13,214 nucleotides of DNA from Candidatus Zixiibacteriota bacterium (GCA_036170655.1 JAVHPP010000078.1:1-13214), one strand, 5' to 3'; shown: positions 1 to 12,949, counted from the stretch's first letter. The notes: a model not told the origin generated them from the letters alone. Translations and numbers: made by a program.

Positions 1-2
1 CG

Positions 3-404
3 CATCGGGCGGTGTCGTGCAACCAATGCCATACGAGCGGATTTGCGGGAACGCCAACCACCTGCGATGGCTGTCATGACGCCAAGTACCGTGCAACGAC
101 CAACCCGAATCATCTCAGCGCACATTTCCCAACCGACTGCATTTCCTGCCACACAACATCGGCGTGGCAACCGGCGAATTGGGATCATGACGGCCGTTTC
201 TTCCCGATCTATTCAGGAAAACACCAGGGAAAGTGGAGCACCTGTGCCGATTGTCATGTCAATCCGGCGAATTACAGCGCCTTCGAGTGCATCTTCTGCC
301 ATGAACACAATCAGACGAAGATGGATTCGAAGCATACTGGTGAGAGTGGGTACCGGTATGCCAGTTCCGCCTGCTACAACTGTCATCCGCGAGGGAAGGG
401 TTGA
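3..404 (+). CDS. Multiheme c-type cytochrome, C-terminal fragment (5'-truncated by window edge), six CxxCH heme-binding motifs visible
   Basis: The frame is open from nt 3 (H-R-A-V-S-C...) to TGA at 402-404. Motifs: CNQCH (18), CDGCH (63), CISCH (138), CADCH (243), CIFCH (288), CYNCH (372). Spare His residues (NPNH, WDH, GKH, HEH, SKH) could serve as distal heme ligands. The GTG at 12 is almost certainly internal. Confidence 0.95.
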   Translation, partial: HRAVSCNQCHTSGFAGTPTTCDGCHDAKYRATTNPNHLSAHFPTDCISCHTTSAWQPANWDHDGRFFPIYSGKHQGKWSTCADCHVNPANYSAFECIFCHEHNQTKMDSKHTGESGYRYASSACYNCHPRGKG

Positions 405-2077
405 AAGACAACAACTTCTGTCAGGCGAGACGTTCGGCGCTCCATCGCGCCAGCATCGGGTGGTGGATTGGTCTGGGCATCATTCCCCTGACCGCTGTTT
501 CGTGCGCTTGGGCGAGTGAGCCTAAAGACGCATTCACGGTCACGTATTTATCGTCGGAACTCGTCTACCTGAACGGTGGAACCGACGCCGGCTTGGCGAT
601 CGGGGATCGTGGGATCATCAGGCAAAAGGACAGCGCGGTCGTGGAGATCGAGGTGGCGTATGTAGCGTCTCACTCCTCTTCCGGCCGGATTCTGCGGCTC
701 GAGCGGGATGTGCAGGTCGGGGATACTGTGCATATAACGGCGAGAGCGGATCGTCCCATGACACCTCCCGGGCCGGAGGCGAGTTCGGGCAAGATGACGA
801 CCGATCAGGCCGCCGGTCCGAAGTCGGCTGCCCTCAAACCTGGTGGCACACGGTTGGCGAGTCTCGGCGGGAGCGTCTATCTTCTGTACAATCGTTGGGA
901 TGACCGGCAGCACACTGATCTAGGGTTCCGACAGGCGAATGTTAGTCTCAATTTGCAGGCGCGCCGAATCGCGGGCACGGACCTGACACTGACTGTCCGC
1001 ACCAGCGGATATCGCGATCAGCAAAACCGGCCGTTCGGCCAGAGCAACCGCGGGGATGAGTGGAGCAGCCGCATCTCGGCCCTCTTTCTGACATACAGCG
1101 CTGTCAAGGTGGGATTGACGATACAGGGTGGACGGATGGCCGCGACGCGAGTCGGCGGTATTGGGTTTATCGATGGACTGCTGATTGAACAGCGCGCCTC
1201 AGAGCACTTCGCTGTTGGTGCGCTGGGAGGCGCTCAGCCGCGATGGCAGTACTCGGACAACATCATGTCGCTGGAACGGGCTGGTGTGTACCTGAGTTAC
1301 AACAAAGGGAACTACCGTACGACCATGATCGAAGCCACTCTTGCAGCGCTGGGGGAATATCATCACGCCACCCTGAGCCGAGAGGTTCTCTACACGCAGG
1401 AACGTCTCAGCATCGGCGACCGGTTCAGCCTTATGCAGAACTCTGAAATCGACGTGAACCGTGGCTGGCGGCACCAGCGTGCGGGAGAGCAGTTCACCCT
1501 GACCAGCTTCTACATCAACGGGCGATATCGACTAACGAGCTGGTGGGCGGCCGGCATGACATACGACGATCGCAAGAACTACTGGACGTATGAGATCCGG
1601 ACCCTTGCGGACAGCCTCTTTGATGATCATTTCCGCCAGGGGTTGCACACGCAATGGGATTTCACCCTGCCGGCGCGGATCGCCGCCAGTGCGAGTGTGG
1701 GTGTACGTGGTCTGAGCACAGCCCCAGACAAGACTTACTCATACACGGCCAGTCTGCGCAAGAGCGGACTTTGGAACTCCGGTTCTACGATCGATTGGCA
1801 GGGAGCGGGGTTCTCCGGGTCGCTCGAAGATGGGTATGACCTGTCGTCGCACTTGGGACAGTACATACGAGGACGCAATTACATCAGTGTCGGCGCGGGT
1901 CAGTACGGTTACAAGGGCGCGGGACAAAGTGGCGTCCACCGGGTCAATCGCTGGGTCGAAGGATCGGTGCGTGTCGATCTCCTTCGGCACCTGTCGGTAA
2001 GTACAGAATACCGTTACAGCAAGGGTAACGACGTCAACGGCCAGCGTATTCAGACAAGTCTGAGCTACATCCTGTAA
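401..2077 (+). CDS. Exported outer-membrane beta-barrel protein, putative porin of a porin-cytochrome conduit, with a small N-terminal soluble beta-domain
   Basis: The TTG start overlaps the cytochrome stop (TTGA at 401-404) and follows GAGGGAAGGG. The N-terminus has a basic region, a hydrophobic stretch and an AWA|SE signal peptidase site. From about aa 154 there are alternating hydrophobic/polar strands rich in Y/W/G/S/R (GGSVYLLYNRW, NVSLNLQARR, AGVYLSYN, FYINGRYRL, LSVSTEYRYS). The C-terminal strand QTSLSYIL has Tyr at -3. The barrel call is solid; the cytochrome-porin role is inferred from context. Confidence 0.8.
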   Translation: MKDNNFCQARRSALHRASIGWWIGLGIIPLTAVSCAWASEPKDAFTVTYLSSELVYLNGGTDAGLAIGDRGIIRQKDSAVVEIEVAYVASHSSSGRILRLERDVQVGDTVHITARADRPMTPPGPEASSGKMTTDQAAGPKSAALKPGGTRLASLGGSVYLLYNRWDDRQHTDLGFRQANVSLNLQARRIAGTDLTLTVRTSGYRDQQNRPFGQSNRGDEWSSRISALFLTYSAVKVGLTIQGGRMAATRVGGIGFIDGLLIEQRASEHFAVGALGGAQPRWQYSDNIMSLERAGVYLSYNKGNYRTTMIEATLAALGEYHHATLSREVLYTQERLSIGDRFSLMQNSEIDVNRGWRHQRAGEQFTLTSFYINGRYRLTSWWAAGMTYDDRKNYWTYEIRTLADSLFDDHFRQGLHTQWDFTLPARIAASASVGVRGLSTAPDKTYSYTASLRKSGLWNSGSTIDWQGAGFSGSLEDGYDLSSHLGQYIRGRNYISVGAGQYGYKGAGQSGVHRVNRWVEGSVRVDLLRHLSVSTEYRYSKGNDVNGQRIQTSLSYIL

Positions 2078-2088
2078 GACGGAGAAGA

Positions 2089-3528
2089 ATGGCTGTGATC
2101 GCGGCCTTGGCACACATGGAGCACACACTCATCTGGTCCGTCGTGGTGGCGATCACGCTGGGTATCGTCGTCCCGTATTATGTCCGGTTCCGCCGGGTAC
2201 ACCGGCATGCCGCCCAACAGAAGAAAGAAGCACACGAGCTCGGCATCGACCGTGCGCGGGCACAGTACCCTCACATCAACGTGTCGCTGTGCATCGGCTG
2301 CGGTTCCTGTGCCCGGGCATGCCCTGAAGAAGATGTCTTGGCTGTTGTCCTCGGGACGGCGACGGTGGTCAACGGTGTGCGTTGCGTGGGGCACGGCCAC
2401 TGTGCAACGGCCTGTCCGGTCGGGGCTATCACGATTGGGCTGGGCGACATCCGCTCGCGAGATGATATCCCGGTGATGAATGAGTACTACGAGACGACCG
2501 TCCCCGGCTTGTACATCGCTGGTGAACTGGGTGGCCAGTCGCTCATCCGCAATGCCATCGACCAGGGCCACCGTGCGGTTGAACGCATTGCGCAGACGTC
2601 GGCGGGTGGCTCACGGGGAGATATGCTGGATGTCATCATTGTGGGGGCGGGGCCCGCGGGATTCAGCGCGGCGCTGACCGCCATCCAGCACAAGTTGTCC
2701 TACGTGGTTTTGGAGGAGCGGGACGTCGGAGGCACCATCCTGCACTATCCGCGCCGCAAGCTGGTGATGACCCAACCGGTGGAGATCCCGCTCTACGGCT
2801 GGCTGCGCCGTGAAGAATACTCTAAAGAAGACCTGGTCGCTATCTGGCAGGAGATCACCGGCAACTTCAATCCCGAGATTCGCACGGGGGAAAAGGTCGA
2901 ACACATCCGGCAGGAGCCTGACGGTCTGGTTGTGCAAACCCAGAATGGAGCGCACAAAGCACGCAATGTTGTCTTGGCAATGGGACGCCGTGGGACACCG
3001 CGCAAGCTGGATGTGCCGGGAGAAGATCTGTCCAAAGTCATGTATCAACTTGTTGATGCGCAGTCGTATTCCGGTCTGCATCTGCTGGTCGTCGGCGGCG
3101 GAGACAGCGCCGTCGAGGCGGCTGTAGGTCTGGCCCGCCAGCCGGGAAACACGGTGACCGTCTCATACCGGAAGAACGCTTTCTTCCGTGTGAAGAAAAA
3201 GAACGAGGTGCTCGTAAATCGCTTTATTGAACAGGGGATCATTCACCCCATCTTCGATTCCCAAGTGGTGGAGATCAGGGAGAAATCGGTCGTGCTGCGA
3301 TCGCCTGCTGGGCAGACCGAACTACCGAATGATTATGTTTTTGTTTTCATTGGAGGGACGCCGCCGTTTCCCGTGCTGCGTGAGGCCGGCATCGCTTTCG
3401 GGAGTGACATGCCGGCGCACGAAAAGCGTCCCAAGCTTCCCGCCGCCGGGTATGGCAAGTTAGGATTGATTAAGACTCCAGCGCCGATTGTCTCCGCTCA
3501 ACCGCCCGATTTGCAGACGGTCGCCTGA
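2089..3528 (+). CDS. Membrane-anchored ferredoxin (two Fe-S motifs) fused to a TrxB/YpdA-like FAD/NAD(P)H-dependent oxidoreductase
   Basis: GGAG RBS at 2081-2084 precedes ATG 2089. A TM helix (IWSVVVAITLGIVVPYYV) is followed by basic RFRRVHRH. Motifs: CIGCGSCARACP (2290), CVGHGHCATACP (2383), TTVPGLYIAGE, FAD Rossmann DVIIVGAGPAG (ending near 2661), VVLAMGRRG (ATG-motif equivalent), NADPH-type VVGGGDSAVEAA with downstream VSYRK, and VFVFIGG. Confidence 0.92.
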   Translation: MAVIAALAHMEHTLIWSVVVAITLGIVVPYYVRFRRVHRHAAQQKKEAHELGIDRARAQYPHINVSLCIGCGSCARACPEEDVLAVVLGTATVVNGVRCVGHGHCATACPVGAITIGLGDIRSRDDIPVMNEYYETTVPGLYIAGELGGQSLIRNAIDQGHRAVERIAQTSAGGSRGDMLDVIIVGAGPAGFSAALTAIQHKLSYVVLEERDVGGTILHYPRRKLVMTQPVEIPLYGWLRREEYSKEDLVAIWQEITGNFNPEIRTGEKVEHIRQEPDGLVVQTQNGAHKARNVVLAMGRRGTPRKLDVPGEDLSKVMYQLVDAQSYSGLHLLVVGGGDSAVEAAVGLARQPGNTVTVSYRKNAFFRVKKKNEVLVNRFIEQGIIHPIFDSQVVEIREKSVVLRSPAGQTELPNDYVFVFIGGTPPFPVLREAGIAFGSDMPAHEKRPKLPAAGYGKLGLIKTPAPIVSAQPPDLQTVA

Positions 3529-3618
3529 AGCGCGCCCCGATTTTCTCTGTCCGGACATCGATAAGAGGCAGGCAGGTCCGTCTCCTGTTCGTCAATTTGT
3601 ACTGAATCCGTCCGGGGG

Positions 3619-4353
3619 CTACAATCCCATTATGTGCCACTGTGCCAGCGTCGCGCGGCAAAATTCCCGCACTTTGGCAATGGCGCCCTCACGATAGCGG
3701 CGTCCCTTTCCCTCATCGAATACCGGAGCGCCCTGCCCCTCTTTGTAGGTGATGACAGGGCCGGGGAATGGGTAGACGGTGACGGCGGGATTGAAGTTCA
3801 CGGACATGGCATCCTTGTACAAGTCGGGACGGACGGTCTCCGGACGGATGGCCATCACGTACCCGTTTTCGTCGCAGCCGGCATGGCCGCCTGCCTGTTG
3901 ATAGACTTCCTCGCAGACGGAGTTGGCGAGAATCCACCAGTCAACGACGAGGACCTTGATCTTGGTGCGTGCGTGAACGGACCACGCCGCCTGTTTCAAT
4001 GTCTGCGTGTTGCCACCGTGTCCGTTGATGACAATCAGATGCTCAAATCGCCAGTCCGCGATGCTGGCAAAGACGCTTTGGCAGTATGACAGTAGGGCGG
4101 ACTCATCGACCCCGAGGGACCCGTGATACCCGGCCAGTCCCCTCACCTGTCCGTAATGGATGGGTGGACAGATCAACGCCGACAGGTCATCGGCGATCTG
4201 TGCCACCATGTCAATCGGGATGAAGTTGTCTGTGCCCAGCGGCCCGACACCATGCGCTTCGACGGTGCCAACGGGGACAATGGCCGTGGGGAATTCGTTC
4301 GGCACACGCCGTTGGAACTCGATCCAGTTCAGATCCTCCCAGTAAGTTGCCAC
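3619..4353 (-). CDS. Creatininase-family (creatinine amidohydrolase/MftE/ArfB-like) binuclear metallo-amidohydrolase
   Basis: Motifs PVGTVEAHG, LGTD, INGHGGN and GHAGCDE supply the family E/H/D/H/E metal ligands. I moved the start from 4377 to GTG 4353 because GGAGG (4358-4362) lies just upstream and the resulting N-terminus (MATYWEDLNW.EF) matches the usual family start. Confidence 0.9.
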   Translation of the reverse strand: MATYWEDLNWIEFQRRVPNEFPTAIVPVGTVEAHGVGPLGTDNFIPIDMVAQIADDLSALICPPIHYGQVRGLAGYHGSLGVDESALLSYCQSVFASIADWRFEHLIVINGHGGNTQTLKQAAWSVHARTKIKVLVVDWWILANSVCEEVYQQAGGHAGCDENGYVMAIRPETVRPDLYKDAMSVNFNPAVTVYPFPGPVITYKEGQGAPVFDEGKGRRYREGAIAKVREFCRATLAQWHIMGL

Positions 4354-4422
4354 ACGTCCTCCGCAATGGCCCGGCACGCGAATGCACGCAGCGGTTTGTC
4401 TCTGACCAATTCGGCCAGCGAA

Positions 4423-5181
4423 TCAGTCCAAGTGGCCGTCACCGTATGGCAAGCCGTCGATGAACTCGGCCAGGATGCTTTCCGTGCATCGGGCGGTCTC
4501 TTCGTCGCCGATGAATCGGCAGTGATTGATCTCATGAATAATGAATTCAAGGTCTTCTTGATGGACGACATCGTAAGAAAGTTCGCTCTCCTGCCAGGTG
4601 AGTCCCGCTTTGGACAGGGCGCTGGTCGAGTGCTGGTAGGATACATCTGACCCCAGTGTCACCAGTCCGATGGCCTTGCGGCAGTCAGCGCGCAAGCCGA
4701 TCAGGTAGCAGCCGCCCTCGATCGTGGGACCTAAGATCAGGGGATGCTGACGCAAATGTCTGAGGGCTTCACTGAGGCGATGAGGGTCCAGCGTTGGGTG
4801 GTACCCGCCCACCATGACTACGCGTTCGTAGCCGTTGTCGAGACAGTGCTCCAAGCTGCCGGCTGTCCGTTCTTCCAGTGGCGCCACCGTCTGGGTAATG
4901 ATCTCCACCCGCTCGGGTAATTCACGGAATCGTTTGCGGCGCGCAAAGCGGGTTGCGAGATGACTGATGGCAACTTTGGCCCACCCGGCGCGGTTGGGCG
5001 GTGCCACGGCGATCTTGATGTCCACCGGTTCGATCTCCGCGACCTGTCGCAGCGTGTCCTCGAAGAAAGCGCGTTTCAGCCGCAACATTTTCTCATCGTC
5101 GAAAACGCGCAGGATCGGGATCGGCTCGTCTGGGCCTGCCGGATTCCTGAGTTGCACGATGATTGCGTCCTTCTGAGTCAC
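4423..5181 (-). CDS. DUF2064 / TIGR04282-like (CofC-related GT-A fold) protein with degenerate motifs
   Basis: The segments LKRAFFEDTL, QTVAPLEERT, GYERVVMVGGYHPTL, LILGPTIEGGCYLIGL and SYDVVHQEDL match the DUF2064 layout (LGPxxDGGYYLIG; DVDxxxDL). I moved the start to GTG 5181, which is preceded by GGAGAGG (5189-5195). Confidence 0.8.
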   Translation of the reverse strand: MTQKDAIIVQLRNPAGPDEPIPILRVFDDEKMLRLKRAFFEDTLRQVAEIEPVDIKIAVAPPNRAGWAKVAISHLATRFARRKRFRELPERVEIITQTVAPLEERTAGSLEHCLDNGYERVVMVGGYHPTLDPHRLSEALRHLRQHPLILGPTIEGGCYLIGLRADCRKAIGLVTLGSDVSYQHSTSALSKAGLTWQESELSYDVVHQEDLEFIIHEINHCRFIGDEETARCTESILAEFIDGLPYGDGHLD

Positions 5182-5200
5182 GATGAGACCTCTCCGCGCG

Positions 5201-5229
5201 AGTATAACGAACCGGCGGACGCGGAACAA
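5201..5229 (-). promoter_or_regulatory. Candidate sigma70-type internal promoter for the DUF2064-creatininase pair
   Basis: Minus strand reads TTGTTC (5229-5224), a 17-bp spacer, then TATACT (5206-5201). It lies in the nadD-DUF2064 gap just upstream of the RBS. Confidence 0.5.
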
Positions 5230-5243
5230 GGGGGTGGAAGATC

Positions 5244-5822
5244 TTATCGCGAGCGATAAAGCCCGACACGGGCGATGTAGGATGCGACCGCGGCCGGTGT
5301 CAGAAAATCGATCGATGCGCCTGCGGCCACCTGTGCGCGAATGGCTGATGCGGAGATGTCGATACGCGGCATTTGGATCACACGCGATCCGGGTGCACCC
5401 TCGTCGGGCAGCACGCCGTCACGCGTGACGAGCGCAAGTTGCACCATCTGTAGGACGGCGTGGGACTCCCTCCAGCGGGGCAGATCCCTCGCGCTGTCGG
5501 CGCCAAGGATGAGGAAGAAATCGCTGTCGGGAAAGAGGGTGCGCAGTTCCTTCAGTGTCTCCACCATGTAGGAAATACCGCCACGCCGTCCTTCAATGTC
5601 ACTGACCCTGAATCCGCGGACGTCGCCGATGGCCAGCCGCAGCATCTCCAGACGGTCCGCAAACGAAGCCACCGGAGCTGCCGCCTTGAGCGGGGAACGG
5701 GCGTTCGGTATGAAAAGAAAATCGTCCGTGTCCAACTGGTCACGGGCACAACTGGCGAGGATCAGATGGCCGATATGGACGGGGTCAAATGTCCCGCCGA
5801 GTATTCCAATGCGACGCGCCAC
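5244..5822 (-). CDS. nadD: Nicotinate-nucleotide adenylyltransferase
   Basis: IGILGGTFDPVHIGH (HIGH motif), SPLK, RLEML, SYMVETL, ILGADS..LPRW and IDISASAIR. The 192-aa length is typical. GTG start. Confidence 0.96.
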   Translation of the reverse strand: MARRIGILGGTFDPVHIGHLILASCARDQLDTDDFLFIPNARSPLKAAAPVASFADRLEMLRLAIGDVRGFRVSDIEGRRGGISYMVETLKELRTLFPDSDFFLILGADSARDLPRWRESHAVLQMVQLALVTRDGVLPDEGAPGSRVIQMPRIDISASAIRAQVAAGASIDFLTPAAVASYIARVGLYRSR

Positions 5823-5837
5823 TCTTCTGCTTCCCTA

Positions 5838-6647
5838 TCACTCTGCGGCCCGCGGCAGGGCCTGTTCGCGGGCAATCTTGGCGACGCGCTTCCGCGCCTT
5901 TGCCGTCAGGGAGTGATCCGGGTATAAATAAATCAGCTTTTCGTACAATTCGACGGCTTGTTTCAAAGAATCAGATTCCCGCTGCCCCTCGGCCATGTAG
6001 TACAACGCATCGGGTACGAGTGGTGACTCTGTGTATCGGTCGATCATTTCCTGCAGATATACGCGCGAAGCCCGGTACTGTCCCATCTTGTAGTAGAGGA
6101 CGCCGGTGCGGAAATCCTTCTGAGACATTCGGCGCAAGGCGGTTTGCAGGAGCGTGTCGGCCGACGTGACGTACTCTGAAAGCGGATGATTGTCCTTGAA
6201 CTGTTGCAGTTCATCGATGGCGGTTTTTGTCTGTTCCTGATCGAGTCCGGGGTTGCCGGGCGCCGCGCTGAGGAGACAGCGGCAGCGCATGAGGTCCGCC
6301 TGGTCAACCAACGGACTGGTCGGATACCGCGTGCGAATACGAAGAAACTCAGCGGCGCCGACGATGGGATCGTTCTGCTTGTAGTGACACATGGCCAGCA
6401 GGAACTGGGCGGAATCGACCAATGAACTCCCGGGGTGATTGAACACGACGATCTCGAATGCGAGCCGGGCCTTCTCCCATTTGCCCTTATTGTACATCTG
6501 ACGGGCTTCGTCAAATGCGGTTTGGGCTGAGGTCGGCTGCGGCGGAACGCTGCCGGAGCATCCTGCCCATCCGCCCAGCAGCAGAAAGACAGGAACAAGG
6601 CGGGTGCAGAACGCGCGACAATGGCTTGATGTCAAAAGGTGTCTCAT
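5838..6647 (-). CDS. bamD: Outer membrane protein assembly lipoprotein BamD (ComL/YfiO family, TPR repeats)
   Basis: The likely start is ATG 6647 after GGGAAGGG. The signal peptide ends in a lipobox-like LLLGGWAG|C. TPR helices include HPGSSLVDSAQFLLAMCHY and YPTSPLVDQA. The BamD-typical DQEQTKTAIDELQQFKDNHPLSEY and LYYKMGQYRAS are present. Confidence 0.9.
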   Translation of the reverse strand: MRHLLTSSHCRAFCTRLVPVFLLLGGWAGCSGSVPPQPTSAQTAFDEARQMYNKGKWEKARLAFEIVVFNHPGSSLVDSAQFLLAMCHYKQNDPIVGAAEFLRIRTRYPTSPLVDQADLMRCRCLLSAAPGNPGLDQEQTKTAIDELQQFKDNHPLSEYVTSADTLLQTALRRMSQKDFRTGVLYYKMGQYRASRVYLQEMIDRYTESPLVPDALYYMAEGQRESDSLKQAVELYEKLIYLYPDHSLTAKARKRVAKIAREQALPRAAE

Positions 6648-6662
6648 CCCTTCCCGTCCAGA

Positions 6663-6691
6663 AACATACGTTTCCCGTGGCATGGCTTCAA
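6663..6691 (-). promoter_or_regulatory. Candidate sigma70-type promoter for bamD-nadD
   Basis: Minus strand reads TTGAAG (6691-6686), a 17-bp spacer, then TATGTT (6668-6663), ending 15 nt upstream of the bamD ATG. The -10 sits inside a GAAAC-N4-GTTTC palindrome (6661-6674). Confidence 0.4.
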
Positions 6692-6834
6692 GGTCAAAGC
6701 CGTTCCCGGTTGTAGTTGACTGGGGCGAATCGGTTCCCAGCAAGGTTGAAGCCGTGTGCTCCGGCGCCCAATGCGCTGCATAACGAATGTTGGTTGACCT
6801 CCGAAAGTCATGCGCACGGGGCGTGCGGTTCCCT

Positions 6835-7554
6835 TTACCGGACCACAAAAAAGAGGGCGGTCAGGACACCGGCAGCGGAGATGACAATGGCTGGCTCGGC
6901 CAGCTTCTCCAGCGTGGTGACGGGGGGGACCGGAGACAAGAAAGGGAGAGTGGAATCAGACAGGTTATGGAGGTGTGCCTTGGGGACCCAATCGCTCCAT
7001 GTGCTATCGGCCGCATTCGACCAGAGAAGCTGCCCCGATTCCATGTCCCAGATCTGCAATTGGAGGGAAAGGTCGAAGACACGCTGTACCCATATTTTTC
7101 CCAGAAAGGAGCGCCGGGCGCATTGAGGCAGCGACAGACGGAAACGGTCGAACCGGTAGCGTACCCCCCAGAGGACGCTCTGCGCCGTGTCGCCCCCGGG
7201 CGATTCCTGGACAACGTACCCGCGCTCGAACAACTCTCGCGCTGCGGTCTCCTCGAACCAGAAGTTCTTCGCCTGTCCGTCGGCGGGAGTGATCCAAAGC
7301 GGCTTGGGTCTGACGAATGGGAATCCATCGAAGATCTTTGCCGTGACGGACCGGATACCACCACGCACGAGTTGCGCGTGGGTCGGGTATGTGACCGTAG
7401 AGACAGCCGCCTTGACACCATCCGTGTCGGCCGGTGTTTCCTGCGCCCCAGCCGGATGGCGCAGGGACAGAGCGGCCATGATCACGAGCAGCAATGCAGA
7501 AAGATGCCTAAGGCGAGGGTGGGCCAATGAAGTCGGGACAGGCCGAGGGATCAT
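6835..7554 (-). CDS. Hypothetical exported protein with a Sec signal peptide and a C-terminal transmembrane anchor
   Basis: The signal peptide RLRHLSALLLVIMAALSLRHPAGA|QET leads into a mixed alpha/beta core. A Pro-rich linker precedes the hydrophobic C-terminus EPAIVISAAGVLTALFFVVR-stop. It is co-oriented between slt and bamD. The start is uncertain (ATG 7554 or TTG 7527). Confidence 0.75.
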   Translation of the reverse strand: MIPRPVPTSLAHPRLRHLSALLLVIMAALSLRHPAGAQETPADTDGVKAAVSTVTYPTHAQLVRGGIRSVTAKIFDGFPFVRPKPLWITPADGQAKNFWFEETAARELFERGYVVQESPGGDTAQSVLWGVRYRFDRFRLSLPQCARRSFLGKIWVQRVFDLSLQLQIWDMESGQLLWSNAADSTWSDWVPKAHLHNLSDSTLPFLSPVPPVTTLEKLAEPAIVISAAGVLTALFFVVR

Positions 7555-8203
7555 AGCGGCGTTGCAATCGTTGGTATTCCTTCAGGACGCGGCGCAGATA
7601 CGACTGCGGCAGAGTGAGCCCCTCCGAGAGCATTCCGCGCACGGCCGACTCTCCATAATTGTAAGCAATTAGTGCCTTCTCGACACTCCCAAATTTCAGC
7701 ACGAGATCAAAAAGATAGTCGATGCCCAGCCGAACATTGATGATCGGCTGGAACAGATTGTGGTCTCCGGACCACTCCCAGCCCAGCTTGGAGACGACGG
7801 CACGAGCAGTAGCCGGTTTGACCTGCATGAGGCCGCAGGCGCCGTTTGATGATATGGCGCGTGGCCCGAACGACGATTCCACCTGGATCATTGCCAGAAC
7901 CAGCAACGGATCGAATCCATGCGAGCGGCTGCATTGGTCGATATGTGCAGCCAATTGGGCCTCACCCGTCGGTGTGAGATTCGTATGCATGTCTTCGATC
8001 ACTTCGAGGACCTTCAGACGCTCCTTCAGCTGGCGAATCTCCACGTCTTGATGTTTGATGGTCTGCTTCTGTGCGATATTTTCGCGCAGCAGGACACCCA
8101 ACCCCACGGTCTGTCCGGCCCAGATCAGCGCCAAGACAGCGGCGATCGGCCAACTGATGATCACCGCGGCGCGCCGGAGTGATGGGCGTCCATTCGTGGT
8201 CAT
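7508..8203 (-). CDS. Membrane-anchored lytic transglycosylase (SLT domain) with coiled-coil stalk
   Basis: An N-terminal TM helix and a coiled coil (IKHQDVEIRQLKERLKVLE) precede the SLT motifs DPLLVLAMIQVESSF (catalytic Glu), AISSNGACGLMQV, NVRLGIDYL and ALIAYNYG. The start overlaps the rimO stop (ATGA at 8200-8203). Confidence 0.93.
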   Translation of the reverse strand: MTTNGRPSLRRAAVIISWPIAAVLALIWAGQTVGLGVLLRENIAQKQTIKHQDVEIRQLKERLKVLEVIEDMHTNLTPTGEAQLAAHIDQCSRSHGFDPLLVLAMIQVESSFGPRAISSNGACGLMQVKPATARAVVSKLGWEWSGDHNLFQPIINVRLGIDYLFDLVLKFGSVEKALIAYNYGESAVRGMLSEGLTLPQSYLRRVLKEYQRLQRRYDPSACPDFIGPPSP

Positions 8204-9612
8204 CGCATACTCCGTCGCACGCCGGTCAAGGCAATATCCCGATGGCTGATTGACATTGTTTCTTCCACAAGCCGGCCGGACAAATCAACGCCGGTGGCTT
8301 CCTCGATGACGACGTGGTACAGGCCGGTTCGGTCGGCCTCGCCGGATACGATCACCTGGCCATCGATTTCCGGGGCATCGTGGACGGTCCGTCCCAGCCA
8401 CGTGTTTCCGAGACGCCGTTCCAGCAGACAGGGGATCGTCAACCCGATCTTGTCAACCGACATTTCTGATGACCACTCATCAAACGCCTGATTCAACCGC
8501 GCCTGCCGTTCACGCGCGACTGCCTCCGGCACCGTGCTGGTCATCTGGCCGGACGGGGTTTCCTCCTCGCGCGAGTAGACGAAAACGCCCAACCGCTCAA
8601 AGGCATTGTCCTCGGCGAACAGGCAGAGTTCCTCGAAGTCGTCCTCAGTCTCGCCGGGGTGACCGACGATAAAGGTTGTCCTCAACGCCAGGCCGGGGCA
8701 CGCGGCCCGGAGACGGTCGATTTTCTCCTGCGTCTCGCCGTGCGTGATGTGACGATTCATGATCTCGAGCATGCGGTCGCTGATGTGTTGCAGCGGCATG
8801 TCGAGATATGGCACGATCTTCTCACTATCGGCGATGGCGCCGATCTGACGGTCGGTCAGGAACGCAGGGTGCGCGTACATGAGGCGGATCCAGAATTGTC
8901 CGTCGATCCGATCAATGGCGCGCAGGAGAACGGATAGTTCGTTGCTTCCCCCGAAATCAAAACCCCAAGAGGTCGTATCCTGCGCGACGAGGATGATCTC
9001 CTTCGTCCCGGCGGCGACCAGTCCACGGATTTCAGCGACGATGGATGTCAGAGGACGCGAACGCAAGCGTCCGCGAATCAGCGGAATGGCACAGAAACGG
9101 CAGGCATTGTCACACCCATCTGAGATCTTCACATAGGCCGATAGGGGAACTGCCTGGCCCGCGGGCCATACGGTCAACATTTCATCATCGCGGTACGTCC
9201 GACCCGGCTTCTCGATCCAGCACGCTGGCGCTCCGCTGGGTGATGCATCCATCGCCTTCAAAACCAAATCGGGCCGGTCGAAACCGACGATCGCGTCGAT
9301 CTCCTTGATCTCTGAGGCCAGTTGTTGCCCGTACCGTTGCGCCAGACAGCCAGTCACAATCAGTTTGCGATGTTTGGTCTTGGAATCGGCCTTCCGTTGC
9401 ACGGATTCCCAGATTGCGTCCAAGGACTCAATCTTTGTGGGCTCGATGAACCCGCACGTGTTGACGATCTCGACGTCCGCCATTTCCGGACTGTCTACCA
9501 CGACCCAGCCGGCACGTGCCAGATGCCGTGCCAACACGCTCCCATCGACCTCATTCTTAGGGCATCCGAGAGTGCGCAGGTAGACGCGACGTATAGGCAT
9601 GGATTGATCCAT
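8200..9612 (-). CDS. rimO: Ribosomal protein S12 methylthiotransferase RimO (radical SAM)
   Basis: UPF0004 motifs TLGCPKNEVD, VNTCGFI and VTGCLAQRY; radical SAM motif KISDGCDNACRFCAIP; AQDTTSWG, WIRLMYAHP, YLDMPLQH, LRTTFIVGHPGET; C-terminal TRAM domain with DAPEIDG, which is RimO-typical. The start could be TTG 9621, ATG 9612 or ATG 9600. Confidence 0.95.
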   Translation of the reverse strand: MDQSMPIRRVYLRTLGCPKNEVDGSVLARHLARAGWVVVDSPEMADVEIVNTCGFIEPTKIESLDAIWESVQRKADSKTKHRKLIVTGCLAQRYGQQLASEIKEIDAIVGFDRPDLVLKAMDASPSGAPACWIEKPGRTYRDDEMLTVWPAGQAVPLSAYVKISDGCDNACRFCAIPLIRGRLRSRPLTSIVAEIRGLVAAGTKEIILVAQDTTSWGFDFGGSNELSVLLRAIDRIDGQFWIRLMYAHPAFLTDRQIGAIADSEKIVPYLDMPLQHISDRMLEIMNRHITHGETQEKIDRLRAACPGLALRTTFIVGHPGETEDDFEELCLFAEDNAFERLGVFVYSREEETPSGQMTSTVPEAVARERQARLNQAFDEWSSEMSVDKIGLTIPCLLERRLGNTWLGRTVHDAPEIDGQVIVSGEADRTGLYHVVIEEATGVDLSGRLVEETMSISHRDIALTGVRRSMR

Positions 9613-9672
9613 AGGGGTCAAACACGAACCGTTGTGTTGATGCGTAAAGATAAGGTACGAAAGCGGAGAACG

Positions 9673-10359
9673 CTACCCTTTTCTTGCGGGCAGAACGATG
9701 ATTTCGGTACCGGCGGGGGGCGTAAGTGTAAAGCGCCCTTTGTCTTTCGAGGAATCGGGGCGGTAATCCAAAAACTTCATCCGTGAGACTTCTTCGTTGT
9801 AATCCACGTATTCAGCGGCTGCCGGAAGGTTCGTTTTGACTTCGATCCACAGGGTAAGTCGTTGAAGCGCTGCCGTTTCCGTCTTGGCGGCTAAGCGGAC
9901 TCGCCAGCAGACGACCTGATCTAATGTGTCCATCTGGCAGTCGACGGGAAAGAAGTCCGTACGAATAGACCCGAAGAATCCGGCTGGTCCAAACTCGAGC
10001 GAGTCGAGCCCCCCCGTGCGAATAGTCACTTGGCGGGATGCTGCGTTGTAACTCCACAATGTATCGAGCCCGCGTACATACGTTTGCGAACCGGTCTCCA
10101 CCCGATAACGTTGGGGAGGGGCCAGCCAAAGCGTGCCCTTTTCCGTGGGGCGTTCGCCAAAGACCAGCGAGCGAGATTCCTTGGTGTAGTTCACACGAAG
10201 AGTCTTATGCGACTTGACCGTTTCCTCGAAAATGGTCAGTGCGGAGTCAGCGCTGCAAGCAGACGCGTGCACGGACAGCGCGAGCGGGTACGCCACACCC
10301 GCGACCACCGCCAGAACAATCGGCCATCGGGAAGCGAGCGCTTTTGAAATACGTGCCAT
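9673..10359 (-). CDS. lolA: Outer-membrane lipoprotein carrier LolA-family protein
   Basis: A signal peptide followed by EKGTLWLAPPQRYRVET..QTYV....TLWSYNAASRQVTI, LTLWI..KTNLP and the C-terminal FTLTPPAGTEII. It lies immediately downstream of ftsK, the classic ftsK-lolA order. Confidence 0.88.
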   Translation of the reverse strand: MARISKALASRWPIVLAVVAGVAYPLALSVHASACSADSALTIFEETVKSHKTLRVNYTKESRSLVFGERPTEKGTLWLAPPQRYRVETGSQTYVRGLDTLWSYNAASRQVTIRTGGLDSLEFGPAGFFGSIRTDFFPVDCQMDTLDQVVCWRVRLAAKTETAALQRLTLWIEVKTNLPAAAEYVDYNEEVSRMKFLDYRPDSSKDKGRFTLTPPAGTEIIVLPARKG

Positions 10360-10430
10360 CGTTCGTCAGGAAACTTGGCCGGAGAAAGTTTGGCAGGTCA
10401 CGGGTCACCCATCCGGCATTTCAACAGGCA

Positions 10431-10495
10431 AGATGCGATCCGTCGGGCCCCAAGTCTACAAGCTTATATGCTGGGGCCGTCGGCGGATCCGATCT
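10431..10495. repeat. GC-rich inverted repeat (hairpin) directly after the ftsK stop
   Basis: GATCCGTCG-GGCCCCA (10437-10452) pairs with TGGGGCC-gt-CGGCGGATC (10472-10489), with one wobble/mismatch and a 2-nt bulge. Outer AGAT/ATCT extends the stem. There is no strong U-tract on the minus strand. Confidence 0.55.
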
Positions 10496-12784
10496 TTATT
10501 GGGGGGTCTTGGCAAATTTCTCTTCGAAATCCGCGCGTGTCCAGAGGACTTCACGTGCCTTGCTGCCGTCATAGGGGCCGACAACTCCGGCCTCCTCGAG
10601 TTTGTCAATCAAGCGTGCCGCACGTTGATAACCGACCCCGAGGCGTCTCTGGAGGAGAGAGACAGATCCCTGCTTGTGCCGGACCACCAGTTCCGCTGCC
10701 TGGTAGAAAAGGAGATCTCCATGATCGTCATCGTTGTCGGTGTCCGTTTCCGGGTTTTCGGCGATAACCGGGTCGGGTTCTGCATTGTGGTTCTGCCGTT
10801 TGAGGAAGTCCACGATGGCCGTGGTTTCCTGGCTGGAGATGTAGGCGCCGTGGACACGCATGGGTTCCGGCTGACCGGGGGCGAGATAGAGCATGTCACC
10901 GCGTCCGACGAGCTTCTCGGCCCCATTGCCGTCAAGCACAGTGCGTGAATCGACCTTCGTCGCCACTTGAAACGCGATCCGGCAGGAGAAATTGGCCTTG
11001 ATCAGGCCCGTGATGACGTCCACCGATGGGCGTTGCGTGGCCAGAATCAGATGAATCCCCACGGCGCGCGCCATCTGCGCCAGACGGGTGATGAGCATCT
11101 CGATCCGTGCGGCTGACTGGCTCATCATCAGGTCCGCCAGTTCGTCAACGACGATCACAAGGTATGGGAGCCGTTTCTCGGGAGTGATCTGGCTGTTGTA
11201 GTCCGCGATGTTACGGACACCGCATGACGCCAGTGTCTTGTAGCGCTCCTCCATTTCCCGCACCGCGTCGGCGAGCAGGCGCTCGGCCCCTCGCGGTTGT
11301 GTGACGACCGCGCGCTCCAGATGGGGGATGCCCTGATACATGGACAGCTCCAGCATCTTGGGGTCAATGAAGAGCAGGCGCACATCACGCGGATGGTGAC
11401 GGAACAGCAACGATGTAATGATCACATTGATGCAGACGCTCTTGCCCGATCCAGTCGATCCGGCGATCAAGAGATGAGGCATTGCCGCCAGATCGGCCAC
11501 GAATGGCTTCCCCTCGATGGTCACCCCCAACGCCAATGGCAACGAGGCATCGGACTCGACAAACGCGGGATCTGCGAGAACGCGGGCCAGCGACACGATT
11601 TCCGGGTCGGCATTGGGAATCTCGATACCGACGGCCGGCTTACCGGGGATTGGCGCGACCACACGGACGCGCGAGGCGGACAGCGCCAGCGCGAGGTCGT
11701 CAGAGAGTCCGACGATCTGATTGACCTTCACGCCAGCCGCTGGGCGGAACTCGTACCGTGTGATGACTGGTCCGGGGAAACTCTGAATCTCTCCCTCGAC
11801 GCCAATGTCAAAGGTCTTCAGCGCCTGCAGGAGTAGTTCGGGGCCACGTGTGTCCGACCGGCGCCGGGGTGTCTTTTCCGGAGGCTGCAGCAGCTCCAGC
11901 GATGGGAATTCGTAGCCGGGGTCAGCCGTCGCGTCCCGCCGTGTCACGCGACGCGACGACACGGAATGAATTGTATCGCGCGCTGCATCCCCTCCCGTCT
12001 TTTCTGCGGCGGATTCTCCATTTGGTGTGCGGAATCCGATCGCCGCATTGACAGACTGCATATCCGGAGGAACGGAAGCAGTGGATTCTGCAGACTCAGA
12101 CGGAGTCCTTTCGGCGCGGCGATGAGTCAGGCAGGCCCATCGTTCTGCCAGCCATGCGCGTAATTTCCTGAGATAGGCGGGGCGTTCCCGTCGGCGAGTC
12201 TTCGCCGGCTTCTTGCGTTGCAACCATGCCGGTAACGTCAGGCCTTTTGGTTTCCAGGGGATGGTCCAGTAGGCCGCGACGAGCAAGATGGCTCCGAGGA
12301 CCAAAGACCCGCCCAGCACGCCAAGAAGGTCCGCGAAGGATTCGGCAAAGAGACGGCCCCACCAACCGGAGATGGTTTCGACTCCGGCTCTCCATGGGGT
12401 TCCCGCTTTGGCGGCATGCAGATCCGTCAGGATGCCAAAGAGAAAGACGGCGGCCCACACGCCTGCAAGAGTCCAAAAGGGGCGGCGGCGCTGAATCAAG
12501 AACAATCGTTTGACCCCGAATGCGCCGAGTGCGGCCAGCATCAGCCAAGCCGACCAGCCCAGCCATTCAAAGAGCACGTACGACACCAGCGCGCCGACCG
12601 CGCCGGCCTGGTTTCGCAGGTAATAGTCTCCCCGCCATGCCTCGTCACGATCGGCCGTGATCCAGCGATCATCCCCGGCCGTGTGCGTCACCAGAGACAG
12701 CAGACAAAAAAGAGCGAGGAGAATGAGCAAAAAGCCGAAAAGCTCATTCTTACGCTTATACGAAATTTTGGAAAACCACTTCAC
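10496..12784 (-). CDS. ftsK: DNA translocase FtsK
   Basis: N-terminal multi-TM domain (NQAGAVGALVS); alpha domain GPVITRYE...GVKV; Walker A HLLIAGSTGSGKS; IDPKMLELS; Walker B IVVDELADLMM; ARAVGIHLILATQRPSVDVITG; gamma domain SVSLLQRRLGVGYQRAARLID. I set the start at GTG 12784 (preceded by AGGGAAAGG) rather than 12946. Confidence 0.97.
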   Translation of the reverse strand: MKWFSKISYKRKNELFGFLLILLALFCLLSLVTHTAGDDRWITADRDEAWRGDYYLRNQAGAVGALVSYVLFEWLGWSAWLMLAALGAFGVKRLFLIQRRRPFWTLAGVWAAVFLFGILTDLHAAKAGTPWRAGVETISGWWGRLFAESFADLLGVLGGSLVLGAILLVAAYWTIPWKPKGLTLPAWLQRKKPAKTRRRERPAYLRKLRAWLAERWACLTHRRAERTPSESAESTASVPPDMQSVNAAIGFRTPNGESAAEKTGGDAARDTIHSVSSRRVTRRDATADPGYEFPSLELLQPPEKTPRRRSDTRGPELLLQALKTFDIGVEGEIQSFPGPVITRYEFRPAAGVKVNQIVGLSDDLALALSASRVRVVAPIPGKPAVGIEIPNADPEIVSLARVLADPAFVESDASLPLALGVTIEGKPFVADLAAMPHLLIAGSTGSGKSVCINVIITSLLFRHHPRDVRLLFIDPKMLELSMYQGIPHLERAVVTQPRGAERLLADAVREMEERYKTLASCGVRNIADYNSQITPEKRLPYLVIVVDELADLMMSQSAARIEMLITRLAQMARAVGIHLILATQRPSVDVITGLIKANFSCRIAFQVATKVDSRTVLDGNGAEKLVGRGDMLYLAPGQPEPMRVHGAYISSQETTAIVDFLKRQNHNAEPDPVIAENPETDTDNDDDHGDLLFYQAAELVVRHKQGSVSLLQRRLGVGYQRAARLIDKLEEAGVVGPYDGSKAREVLWTRADFEEKFAKTPQ

Positions 12785-12845
12785 AGAAGCGGCCTTTCCC
12801 TGACCAATGCCGTTGGTACTGCACGGTCCCCCCTGGACCGTCGGC

Positions 12846-12874
12846 AAACAACCGGTGCGGATGGCGTCTGTCAA
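12846..12874 (-). promoter_or_regulatory. Possible ftsK operon promoter
   Basis: A perfect -35 TTGACA lies on the minus strand (12874-12869), but the -10 at 17 bp is weak (TTGTTT). It is followed in the leader by the hairpin ACGGTCC-N5-GGACCGT (12823-12841). Confidence 0.3.
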
Positions 12875-12949
12875 TGGGAAATGCGACGTCTTTAGGCGTT
12901 CCTTGAATTGCGCGGTTTTCAAGTCATGCAGGAAACGCTGAACCATTTG

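Follow-up and report, generated by a model that had tools for sequence, protein, structure and literature searches.

The window analysed here is the 13,214-nucleotide contig JAVHPP010000078.1 of a Candidatus Zixiibacteriota bacterium, an entire contig of the 2.6-Mb, 184-contig assembly GCA_036170655.1, and its first 3528 nucleotides hold the last three genes of a conserved five-gene operon. These encode the end of a multihaem cytochrome, an outer-membrane beta-barrel protein and a membrane-anchored Fe-S flavoprotein, which we call F. In relatives they are preceded by genes for an inner-membrane protein (IMP) and for a 17 to 20-haem cytochrome, and from these relatives the full module is predicted for the present genome. 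Set against the main texts of the published work, the core of the module is already known as a predicted porin–cytochrome system of the PCC3 type; what is new is the constant flavoprotein, the predicted cytoplasmic link to NAD(P)H and the taxonomic range. We put it at somewhat better than an even chance that F and the IMP form a split input like that of NOX and MsrQ, in which electrons would pass from NAD(P)H to flavin adenine dinucleotide (FAD), Fe-S clusters, haem b and a cytochrome wire.

Linkage of the flavoprotein to the module

A search of contigs from one genome per species gave 66 loci with F, and module partners are present at 63 of them, in four gene orders. In 52 loci the barrel gene is the direct upstream neighbour of F, at 8 loci F lies directly upstream of the gene that encodes the IMP, and at 2 more it stands beside that gene (once on the same strand, once divergent); 42 loci carry IMP, cytochromes, barrel and F together. 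The carriers are Zixibacteria, metagenome-assembled genomes (MAGs) labelled Ignavibacteria and Calditrichia, KSB1, Cytophagia, Gemmatimonadota, Rhodothermales, Thermoanaerobaculia and one Gammaproteobacteria MAG. The last of these provides the divergent arrangement, together with an IMP matching the profile at E 4e-31 and 21- and 15-haem genes (L066). The three loci without partners consist of F alone, an incomplete F at the beginning of a contig whose opposite strand carries a 27-haem gene, and a contig of 2.2 kb.

The phyletic pattern is equally strict. Among 41 genomes (the window's own and 40 relatives, which as related genomes are not independent of one another), the barrel is found in 14 and full-length F (E ≤ 3e-114) in exactly the same 14, with the IMP in 13 of these, all but the window's own. 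The remaining 27 have no barrel, full-length F or IMP, and 3 of them hold only an F paralogue of another architecture. Presence of the module is patchy even inside genera, for example in 4 of 6, 2 of 3 and 1 of 2 genomes.

For the converse count, 80 metagenome loci were fetched with the IMP profile; these are the closest of at least 525 matches, and the count has no bearing on distant IMP families. F is present in 24 of the 80, and in every one of the 13 that have at least 9 kb of sequence downstream of the IMP gene. Of the loci, 23 extend as far as the barrel gene; F comes right after it in 21, and in the remaining two the contig stops at that point.

Thus, three independent counts, from the loci found with F, from the phyletic pattern and from the loci found with the IMP, make F a part of the module. 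A preliminary description of this DNA had named the three coupled genes as a multihaem cytochrome, a barrel and a transmembrane-anchored Fe-S/FAD/NAD(P)H enzyme, and all are where it placed them; the co-occurrence of oxidoreductase and cytochrome–porin genes on which it made its proposal depend is borne out by the first two counts. It had further predicted a polytopic subunit of the haem-b type upstream, and a gene of this kind is present in 13 of the 13 other genomes that have the barrel.

In one Thermoanaerobaculia MAG (L073:9503-13231, plus strand), the reading frame of F continues across a hydrophobic segment and on into a 25-haem cytochrome, owing either to a natural fusion, for which the in–out topology would be consistent, or to the loss of a stop codon.

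The flavoprotein

F (2089–3528, plus strand, 479 aa) is made up of a transmembrane helix (2128–2184), two Fe-S motifs (2272–2436) and a YpdA/TrxR-like FAD/NAD(P)H domain (about 2446–3423). In Pfam it matches Pyr_redox_3 (E 5.6e-44) and Fer4 families. The Fe-S motifs are CIGCGSCARACP at residues 68–79 and CVGHGHCATACP at residues 99–110, and between them they contain all seven Cys of the protein, the flavin domain being free of Cys. All 38 F members in an alignment have C68, C74, C78, C99, H102, C105 and C109 (in the numbering of the window's copy), and the second Cys of the first motif is missing in a more distant clade. As the C, H, C and C of the CxxHxxCxxxCP motif are invariant, one of the clusters is predicted to have a His ligand.

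The single hydrophobic helix is N-terminal, and in all 38 members there are 0–1 Lys or Arg residues before it and 4–9 in the 20 residues that follow; a twin-arginine (Tat) motif is found in none of the 38. This positive-inside charge pattern and the lack of a Tat motif place the cofactor domains in the cytoplasm, so that F is predicted to be an N-out, single-helix protein with its catalytic part inside, as the preliminary description had proposed from the window's copy.

The nucleotide-binding motifs of F are GAGPAG (186–191) and GGGDSA (336–341), the latter followed by YRK..FFRVKK, and from the YRK..F.R motif after GGGDSA the cofactor is probably NADPH. The nearest solved structures are those of YpdA/Bdr (7a7b, E 8.7e-49; 7a76, E 5e-45), followed by thioredoxin reductases and ferredoxin-NADP reductases (FNRs) of the TrxR type; PDB entries 3ab1, 6gas and 3lzw match the flavin domain at E 1e-21 to 1e-24. 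YpdA/Bdr and the TrxR-type FNRs have the same FAD and NADPH motifs as F, to which F adds a transmembrane anchor and an Fe-S domain. F is not a YpdA/Bdr protein, since it scores 173.8 bits against a cut-off of 339.9 in TIGR04018 and the Cys of GGGPCG is Ala in its GAGPAG, nor is it a thioredoxin reductase (TIGR01292, 91.8 bits against 343.45), having no CxxC in the flavin domain. A role as a disulfide reductase is ruled out by the absence of Cys from that domain. From these sequence features, F is best understood as the fusion of a ferredoxin with an FNR-like enzyme of the TrxR fold that has no cysteines.

The segment ETTVPGLYIAGELGG of F (residues about 120–155, window 2446–2550) aligns to the C-terminal FAD-binding segment of YpdA (277–293) and also to that of the small subunit of glutamate synthase. 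Since it stands before the GxGxxG motif in F, the flavin domain looks circularly permuted. Three related genomes that do not have the module (G004, G008 and G037) contain paralogues of 675–684 aa (L089:5345-7372, L090:4908-6947 and L091:1776-3830), in which the flavin domain is N-terminal and the ferredoxin motif C-terminal, with no IMP or barrel gene nearby.

The inner-membrane protein

In ten loci of relatives with wide flanks the gene order is IMP (~300 aa), 17 to 20-haem cytochrome, giant cytochrome, barrel and F. The 17 to 20-haem gene is seen in eight of the ten, and in the other two a contig end cuts the locus off ahead of the first genes. In all 8 cases compared, the IMP has about five predicted hydrophobic helices together with an SGxxG motif and two Hx13H motifs, and in 7 of the 8 both Hx13H take the form Wx3Hx13H. 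Over 40 sequences from several phyla, H99, H113, H269 and H283 and the SGxxGR sequence are invariant in all, and the IMP is predicted to bind two stacked haems b through these four His.

Thirteen further proteins of 676–739 aa (P0286–P0298) are fusions of Fe-S dicluster domains with an IMP-type domain, so direct wiring from Fe-S clusters to an IMP exists in nature. They begin with an unassigned N-terminal domain, followed by the Fe-S dicluster and a five-helix domain with Wx3Hx13H and SGxxGR, and one is named as coming from Myxococcales. The search for long proteins with an IMP domain gave these 13 fusions with Fe-S domains and none with the flavin domain.

The giant repeat cytochrome

The first base of the contig falls inside the multihaem cytochrome gene, and the 5' part of the operon is cut away. 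What is left of the gene (3–404, plus strand, open at the contig start) is 133 codons followed by TGA, with CxxCH at residues 6, 21, 46, 81, 96 and 124. The whole 2.6-Mb assembly has only 16 stop-to-stop frames with at least four CxxCH, so that a frame with six is not due to chance. Matches of the fragment to the Pfam families Cytochrome_C7 and c3_2 are below cut-off. It is, however, 56–65% identical to the C-terminal 132 residues of the cytochromes found at the same place in 10 of 10 relatives, and 30–48% identical to the internal 72-aa repeats of these proteins. The relatives' orthologues are 434–1827 aa long and contain 16–73 CxxCH (10 of 10 relatives), and the giant ones have a period of 72 residues with three haem motifs per repeat at spacings of 15, 25 and 32, about 25 residues per haem and 14% Thr. 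By this similarity the fragment is the C-terminal end of a giant cytochrome made up of three-haem repeats of 72 aa, and it was correct to regard it as unlike MtrA. The repeats are probably the cause of the assembly break at the contig start.

The outer-membrane barrel

The barrel protein (401–2077, plus strand, 558 aa) starts at TTG 401 and ends with TAA at 2075–2077. It has a signal-peptide-like segment (401–517) ending AWA/SEP, a small beta domain (530–742), a disordered linker (752–850) and the barrel itself (860–2074). An AlphaFold2 model from a 19-sequence alignment (mean pLDDT 75.5, pTM 0.61, barrel blocks mostly 80–95) gives the beta domain at residues 44–114, the linker at 118–150 and 22 strands over 154–557. 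Searched with Foldseek, the model finds outer-membrane barrels only, at low TM-score. In a wide structural search the 22-strand TonB-dependent/SusC barrels rank first (best 5t3r_D, with Z 18.6 over 360 aligned residues and an rmsd of 4.2), and OprD-type porins and ushers come next. The N-terminal beta domain of ~70 residues has a conserved YLxGG...GD sequence and is followed by the 35-residue disordered linker (both in the region 530–850); some structural alignments lay this domain over the plug region of the TonB-dependent transporters.

The barrel protein belongs to no Pfam or NCBIfam family, and hmmscan of Pfam-A with it and two orthologues gave no family at E ≤ 0.05, MtrB_PioB included. 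An MtrB-like identity was rejected, as there is no Pfam match and MtrB is missing from the top 50 of the structural matches. Only 12 relatives came up in a word-indexed search. The 19-member profile, run against 1.84 billion representatives of 50% identity clusters, matched 2970 at E ≤ 1e-3 and 1036 at E ≤ 1e-30; with this number of clusters and no family model, the barrel represents a large unnamed family. In most members the last residue is F or L, preceded by an alternating pattern.

The barrel and the giant cytochrome bear on a reading in which there is no extracellular wire. F and the IMP would then export reductant for haem or Cys maturation or to a soluble periplasmic substrate, and the barrel would serve in secretion or anchoring of the giant cytochrome. 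The exposure of that cytochrome on the outside is a prediction and the barrel carries an extra N-terminal domain, which are both in keeping with this reading, and MsrPQ is described as a precedent for periplasmic repair by such a membrane haem protein (PMC12525009). Set against it, 16–73 haems at ~25 residues per haem in a variable number of repeats suit a long-range conductor, and barrel and cytochrome genes are in every case placed for close translational coupling, as in porin–cytochrome systems. We regard it as improbable.

Proposed electron path and its direction

In the split NOX/MsrQ-like input, F would be anchored in the inner membrane by its single N-out helix, the cofactor domains facing the cytoplasm. 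Its FAD would be reduced by NAD(P)H, probably NADPH, and the electrons would move on to its two Fe-S clusters, one of them His-ligated. From there they would reach the IMP at its cytoplasm-side haem b; the IMP would hold two stacked haems on its four His as in NOX, STEAP and MsrQ-type proteins. The outer haem b would deliver them to the periplasmic 20-haem cytochrome. The giant repeat cytochrome, reaching through or from the 22-strand barrel, would then pass them to minerals, humics, electrodes or partner cells. The quinone pool would be bypassed. Since electrons would leave and protons stay inside, the module would be a redox-balancing electron dump with no gain of proton-motive force.

A natural counterpart for the first steps is MsrQ, a member of the NOX/STEAP superfamily, which is described as being fed by a cytosolic NADH oxidoreductase and passing the electrons to a periplasmic partner (PMC12525009). 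Circumstantial support comes from a Lentimicrobium MAG that was recovered only with conductive carbon and has a porin cluster with 61- and 20-haem cytochromes (PMC13013709); by its description there, this cluster is probably the same module.

Several observations weigh against the proposed path. The IMP is modelled with confidence (pLDDT 90.2), but Foldseek with this model finds nothing in the PDB at E ≤ 0.001. By sequence, too, the IMP has no match in the PDB, and in the ESM Atlas it has matches to unnamed clusters only. A wide fold search has a top Z of 8.2 and gives CybB (5oc0) Z 7.5, FdnI (1kqg_C) Z 6.7, STEAP1 Z 6.7, STEAP4 Z 6.4 and SpNOX Z 6.3, values for dihaem or haem-b proteins that are no better than those of unrelated helical proteins. 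In Pfam the IMP matches Ferric_reduct, cytochrome b561 and DUF4405, none of them above the cut-off, Ferric_reduct reaching 17.4 bits against 28 in one of five IMPs. As these fold matches are within the noise, it is the four invariant His that carry the prediction of haem b. At one locus (L035, Calditrichaceae MAG, 10004–11314), an F of 60% identity has 10-kb flanks with no cytochrome, IMP or barrel; it is the only locus with full 10-kb flanks in which F is without a partner. Export from NAD(P)H that consumes membrane potential would also be energetically wasteful.

The window's own genome adds to these points. A tblastn search of it for the IMP gave no homologue (best E 1.2), an IMP profile search gave nothing, and the 20-haem cytochrome gene was not found in the assembly; the assembly breaks inside the repeat cytochrome, so that both genes are predicted here from the relatives. 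Of the listed sequencing runs that contain this DNA (window 1–3600), none is on record as RNA. In addition, the genome holds quinone-linked genes of the Nuo (NuoD), NrfD and NapC types. A second, distant multihaem cluster lies on another contig (C50, about 22500–41250, minus strand), with seven frames of 17, 20, 11, 7, 6, 6 and 42 CxxCH. The 17-haem frame contains a NapC/NirT domain, and a quinol-linked export route is probably present in this genome as well. The presence of NuoD, NrfD-type and NapC/NirT-domain genes makes the module an additional route and not the sole one.

Quinone enzymes of this kind, Nuo and NrfD-type, would also fit a quinone-coupled PCC3 conduit, in which the IMP exchanges electrons with the menaquinone pool and F, no longer the main input, acts as a supplementary or alternative donor or serves to poise or protect the haems. 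In the PCC3 model of He et al. (2017, PMC5566968) the IMP is a quinone-active cytochrome b, which, as the IMP may have a quinone site, tells against a path bypassing quinones, and the proteobacterial PCC3 as described has four components and no flavoprotein. MsrQ itself is described as binding ubiquinone besides taking electrons from a cytosolic reductase (PMC12525009). On the other side, F is always there where the contig permits (13 of 13 and 14 of 14), often directly beside the IMP gene, which fits a core subunit better than an accessory, and no quinone-site motif was identified. On balance we hold quinone coupling to be unlikely, if less so than the reading with no extracellular wire.

The direction of flow is a separate matter. 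In an uptake reading, electrons from Fe(II), a cathode or partner cells would enter through the IMP and F and reach NAD(P)+ or the fused ferredoxin domain, for use in biosynthesis. The flavin domain of F resembles the TrxR-type FNRs, enzymes that can work in either direction, and PCC3, in the main-text accounts of it, first came to notice in Fe(II) oxidisers and was given a model of electron uptake. However, the inward path would run against the inside-negative potential and uphill to the NAD(P)+ couple at about −320 mV, and the module contains no coupling device in the form of a proton-translocating or bifurcating subunit. The carriers are heterotroph-like FCB-group and Acidobacteria MAGs, by their database labels only. 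Uptake therefore seems to us distinctly improbable, and as inward flow is opposed by both the membrane potential and the NAD(P)+ couple, export is favoured. The preliminary description had suggested that the module may couple extracellular redox to NAD(P)H or ferredoxin in either direction; coupling to NAD(P)H is supported, as a prediction, and of the two directions export is the likelier on these thermodynamic grounds.

Relation to known systems

PCC3 was predicted by He et al. (2017, PMC5566968), whose main text describes a porin, an IMP, a periplasmic cytochrome with a median of 21 haems and an extracellular one with a median of 34, which is built of repeats and rich in Thr, Ser, Ala and Gly. 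The IMP of PCC3 and PCC4 has there ~300 aa and five helices, with SGxxG in the fourth and Wx3Hx13H in the third and fifth, and that of PCC4 is fused to Fe-S dicluster domains. Hoover et al. (2023, PMC10734462) give the same four PCC3 parts in their main text. As seen in the relatives, the module shares with these descriptions the ~300-aa IMP, a periplasmic cytochrome of ~21 haems (17–20 here), the huge repeat-built cytochrome rich in Thr, Ser and Ala, and the barrel gene. The barrel, modelled with 22 strands, is encoded beside the cytochrome gene with a 4-nt overlap; the giant cytochrome is seen in full in the relatives' orthologues, the window holding its last 133 residues only; and the IMP signature is present in 8 of 8 relatives, its gene being absent from the window's own assembly. 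Set against these published descriptions alone, the four-gene core is of the PCC3 type by gene content and IMP signature. The preliminary description had foreseen that the cluster might already be catalogued as of PCC3 or PCC4 type, and this holds for the core, which is uncharacterised, the flavoprotein being outside that description.

The module differs from PCC3 in that a fifth gene, that of F, is always linked here. No flavoprotein is mentioned with PCC3 in the main texts of PMC5566968 and PMC10734462, and in neither is any of the terms ferredoxin, FAD, flavo-, thioredoxin and pyridine tied to it. Nor is one described in such clusters in the porin–cytochrome literature that was searched, or in the main texts of PMC7399161, 10.64898/2026.05.27.727921 and PMC13013709. 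The large cytochrome has up to 73 haems here, compared with 10–35 in Gallionellaceae; for Amphritea, He et al. (PMC5566968) give 63. The carriers here are Zixibacteria, other FCB-group and Acidobacteria MAGs, whereas those of PCC3 are mainly Proteobacteria.

The inner-membrane part resembles NOX, STEAP and MsrQ–Fre in its predicted layout, with a cytoplasmic NAD(P)H flavoenzyme, stacked haems b on His pairs of two helices and an acceptor on the opposite side. The two Hx13H pairs are present in all 40 of the relatives' IMPs, haem binding by them being a prediction. In contrast to the FNR-fold domain or Fre of those systems, the dehydrogenase here has the YpdA/TrxR fold, two Fe-S clusters and an anchor of its own; the IMP has five helices and a ~120-residue cytoplasmic insert in place of six helices; and the acceptor is a multihaem wire, unlike theirs.

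With MtrCAB, MtoAB and PioAB and the Geobacter Pcc system (OmaB–OmbB–OmcB), the module shares a barrel gene adjoining multihaem cytochrome genes and a presumed path across the outer membrane. The barrel is modelled with 22 strands, however, whereas MtrB has 26; a decahaem protein of the MtrA type, as in the Mtr systems, is absent; and entry at the inner membrane would be through the IMP and F and not through a quinol dehydrogenase of the CymA, ImcH or Cbc type. The module is thus not an Mtr/Mto/Pio system or a Geobacter Pcc system.

Gene junctions and the rest of the contig

The junction of the cytochrome and barrel genes (391–404, plus strand) has a Shine–Dalgarno-like sequence, GAGGGAAGG, followed by TTGA, which is common to the barrel start TTG 401 and the cytochrome stop TGA at 402–404. 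Ahead of the signal-peptide-like segment, TTG 401 is the only ATG, GTG or TTG codon, and in relatives the two genes likewise overlap or abut. An 11-nt spacer (2078–2088, plus strand) separates the barrel gene from that of F, with GGAG four bases 5' of ATG 2089. Nearly all F homologues begin at the residue that matches ATG 2116 (M10), and judged by these homologues the true start of F may be this ATG, nine codons on, in which case the gap is 38 nt. The 4-nt TTGA overlap reported in the preliminary description is therefore confirmed, and the 11-nt gap with its ribosome-binding site stands for ATG 2089 but not for ATG 2116.

No promoter-like site and no plus-strand terminator-like site were found in window positions 1–4500. 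The next gene after F (3619–4377) is on the opposite strand and is the first of a run of minus-strand housekeeping genes (3619–12946). These encode a creatininase-family protein, DUF2064, NadD, BamD, a 239-aa protein for which no family was matched, an SLT (lytic) transglycosylase, RimO, a LolA-like protein and FtsK, with no further redox genes among them. As the remaining genes of the contig all lie on the minus strand and are of housekeeping type, the operon ends with the gene for F.

Implications

To our knowledge, every bacterial route to extracellular acceptors that has been characterised departs from the inner membrane by way of quinol dehydrogenases of the CymA/NapC, ImcH and Cbc types. 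We consider it possible, at slightly less than an even chance, that F and the dihaem IMP form a two-component, NOX-like NAD(P)H:haem-b oxidoreductase that is a widespread fifth inner-membrane crossing for extracellular electron transfer, feeding a cable of up to ~90 haems and an outer-membrane barrel. If so, this would be a direct wire from NAD(P)H to the cell surface with no quinone step, one in which membrane potential is used rather than gained. PCC3, predicted in 2017, would gain a concrete inner-membrane mechanism that can be assayed, and F, the IMP, the 20-haem cytochrome and the barrel are small enough for expression. The screening of genomes for metal, humic and electrode respiration would change, the barrel family alone comprising 2970 clusters with no Pfam model. 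For the organisms themselves, it would mean that fermentative or acceptor-starved bacteria of poorly studied phyla may dump electrons outside the cell without quinones or quinol dehydrogenases.

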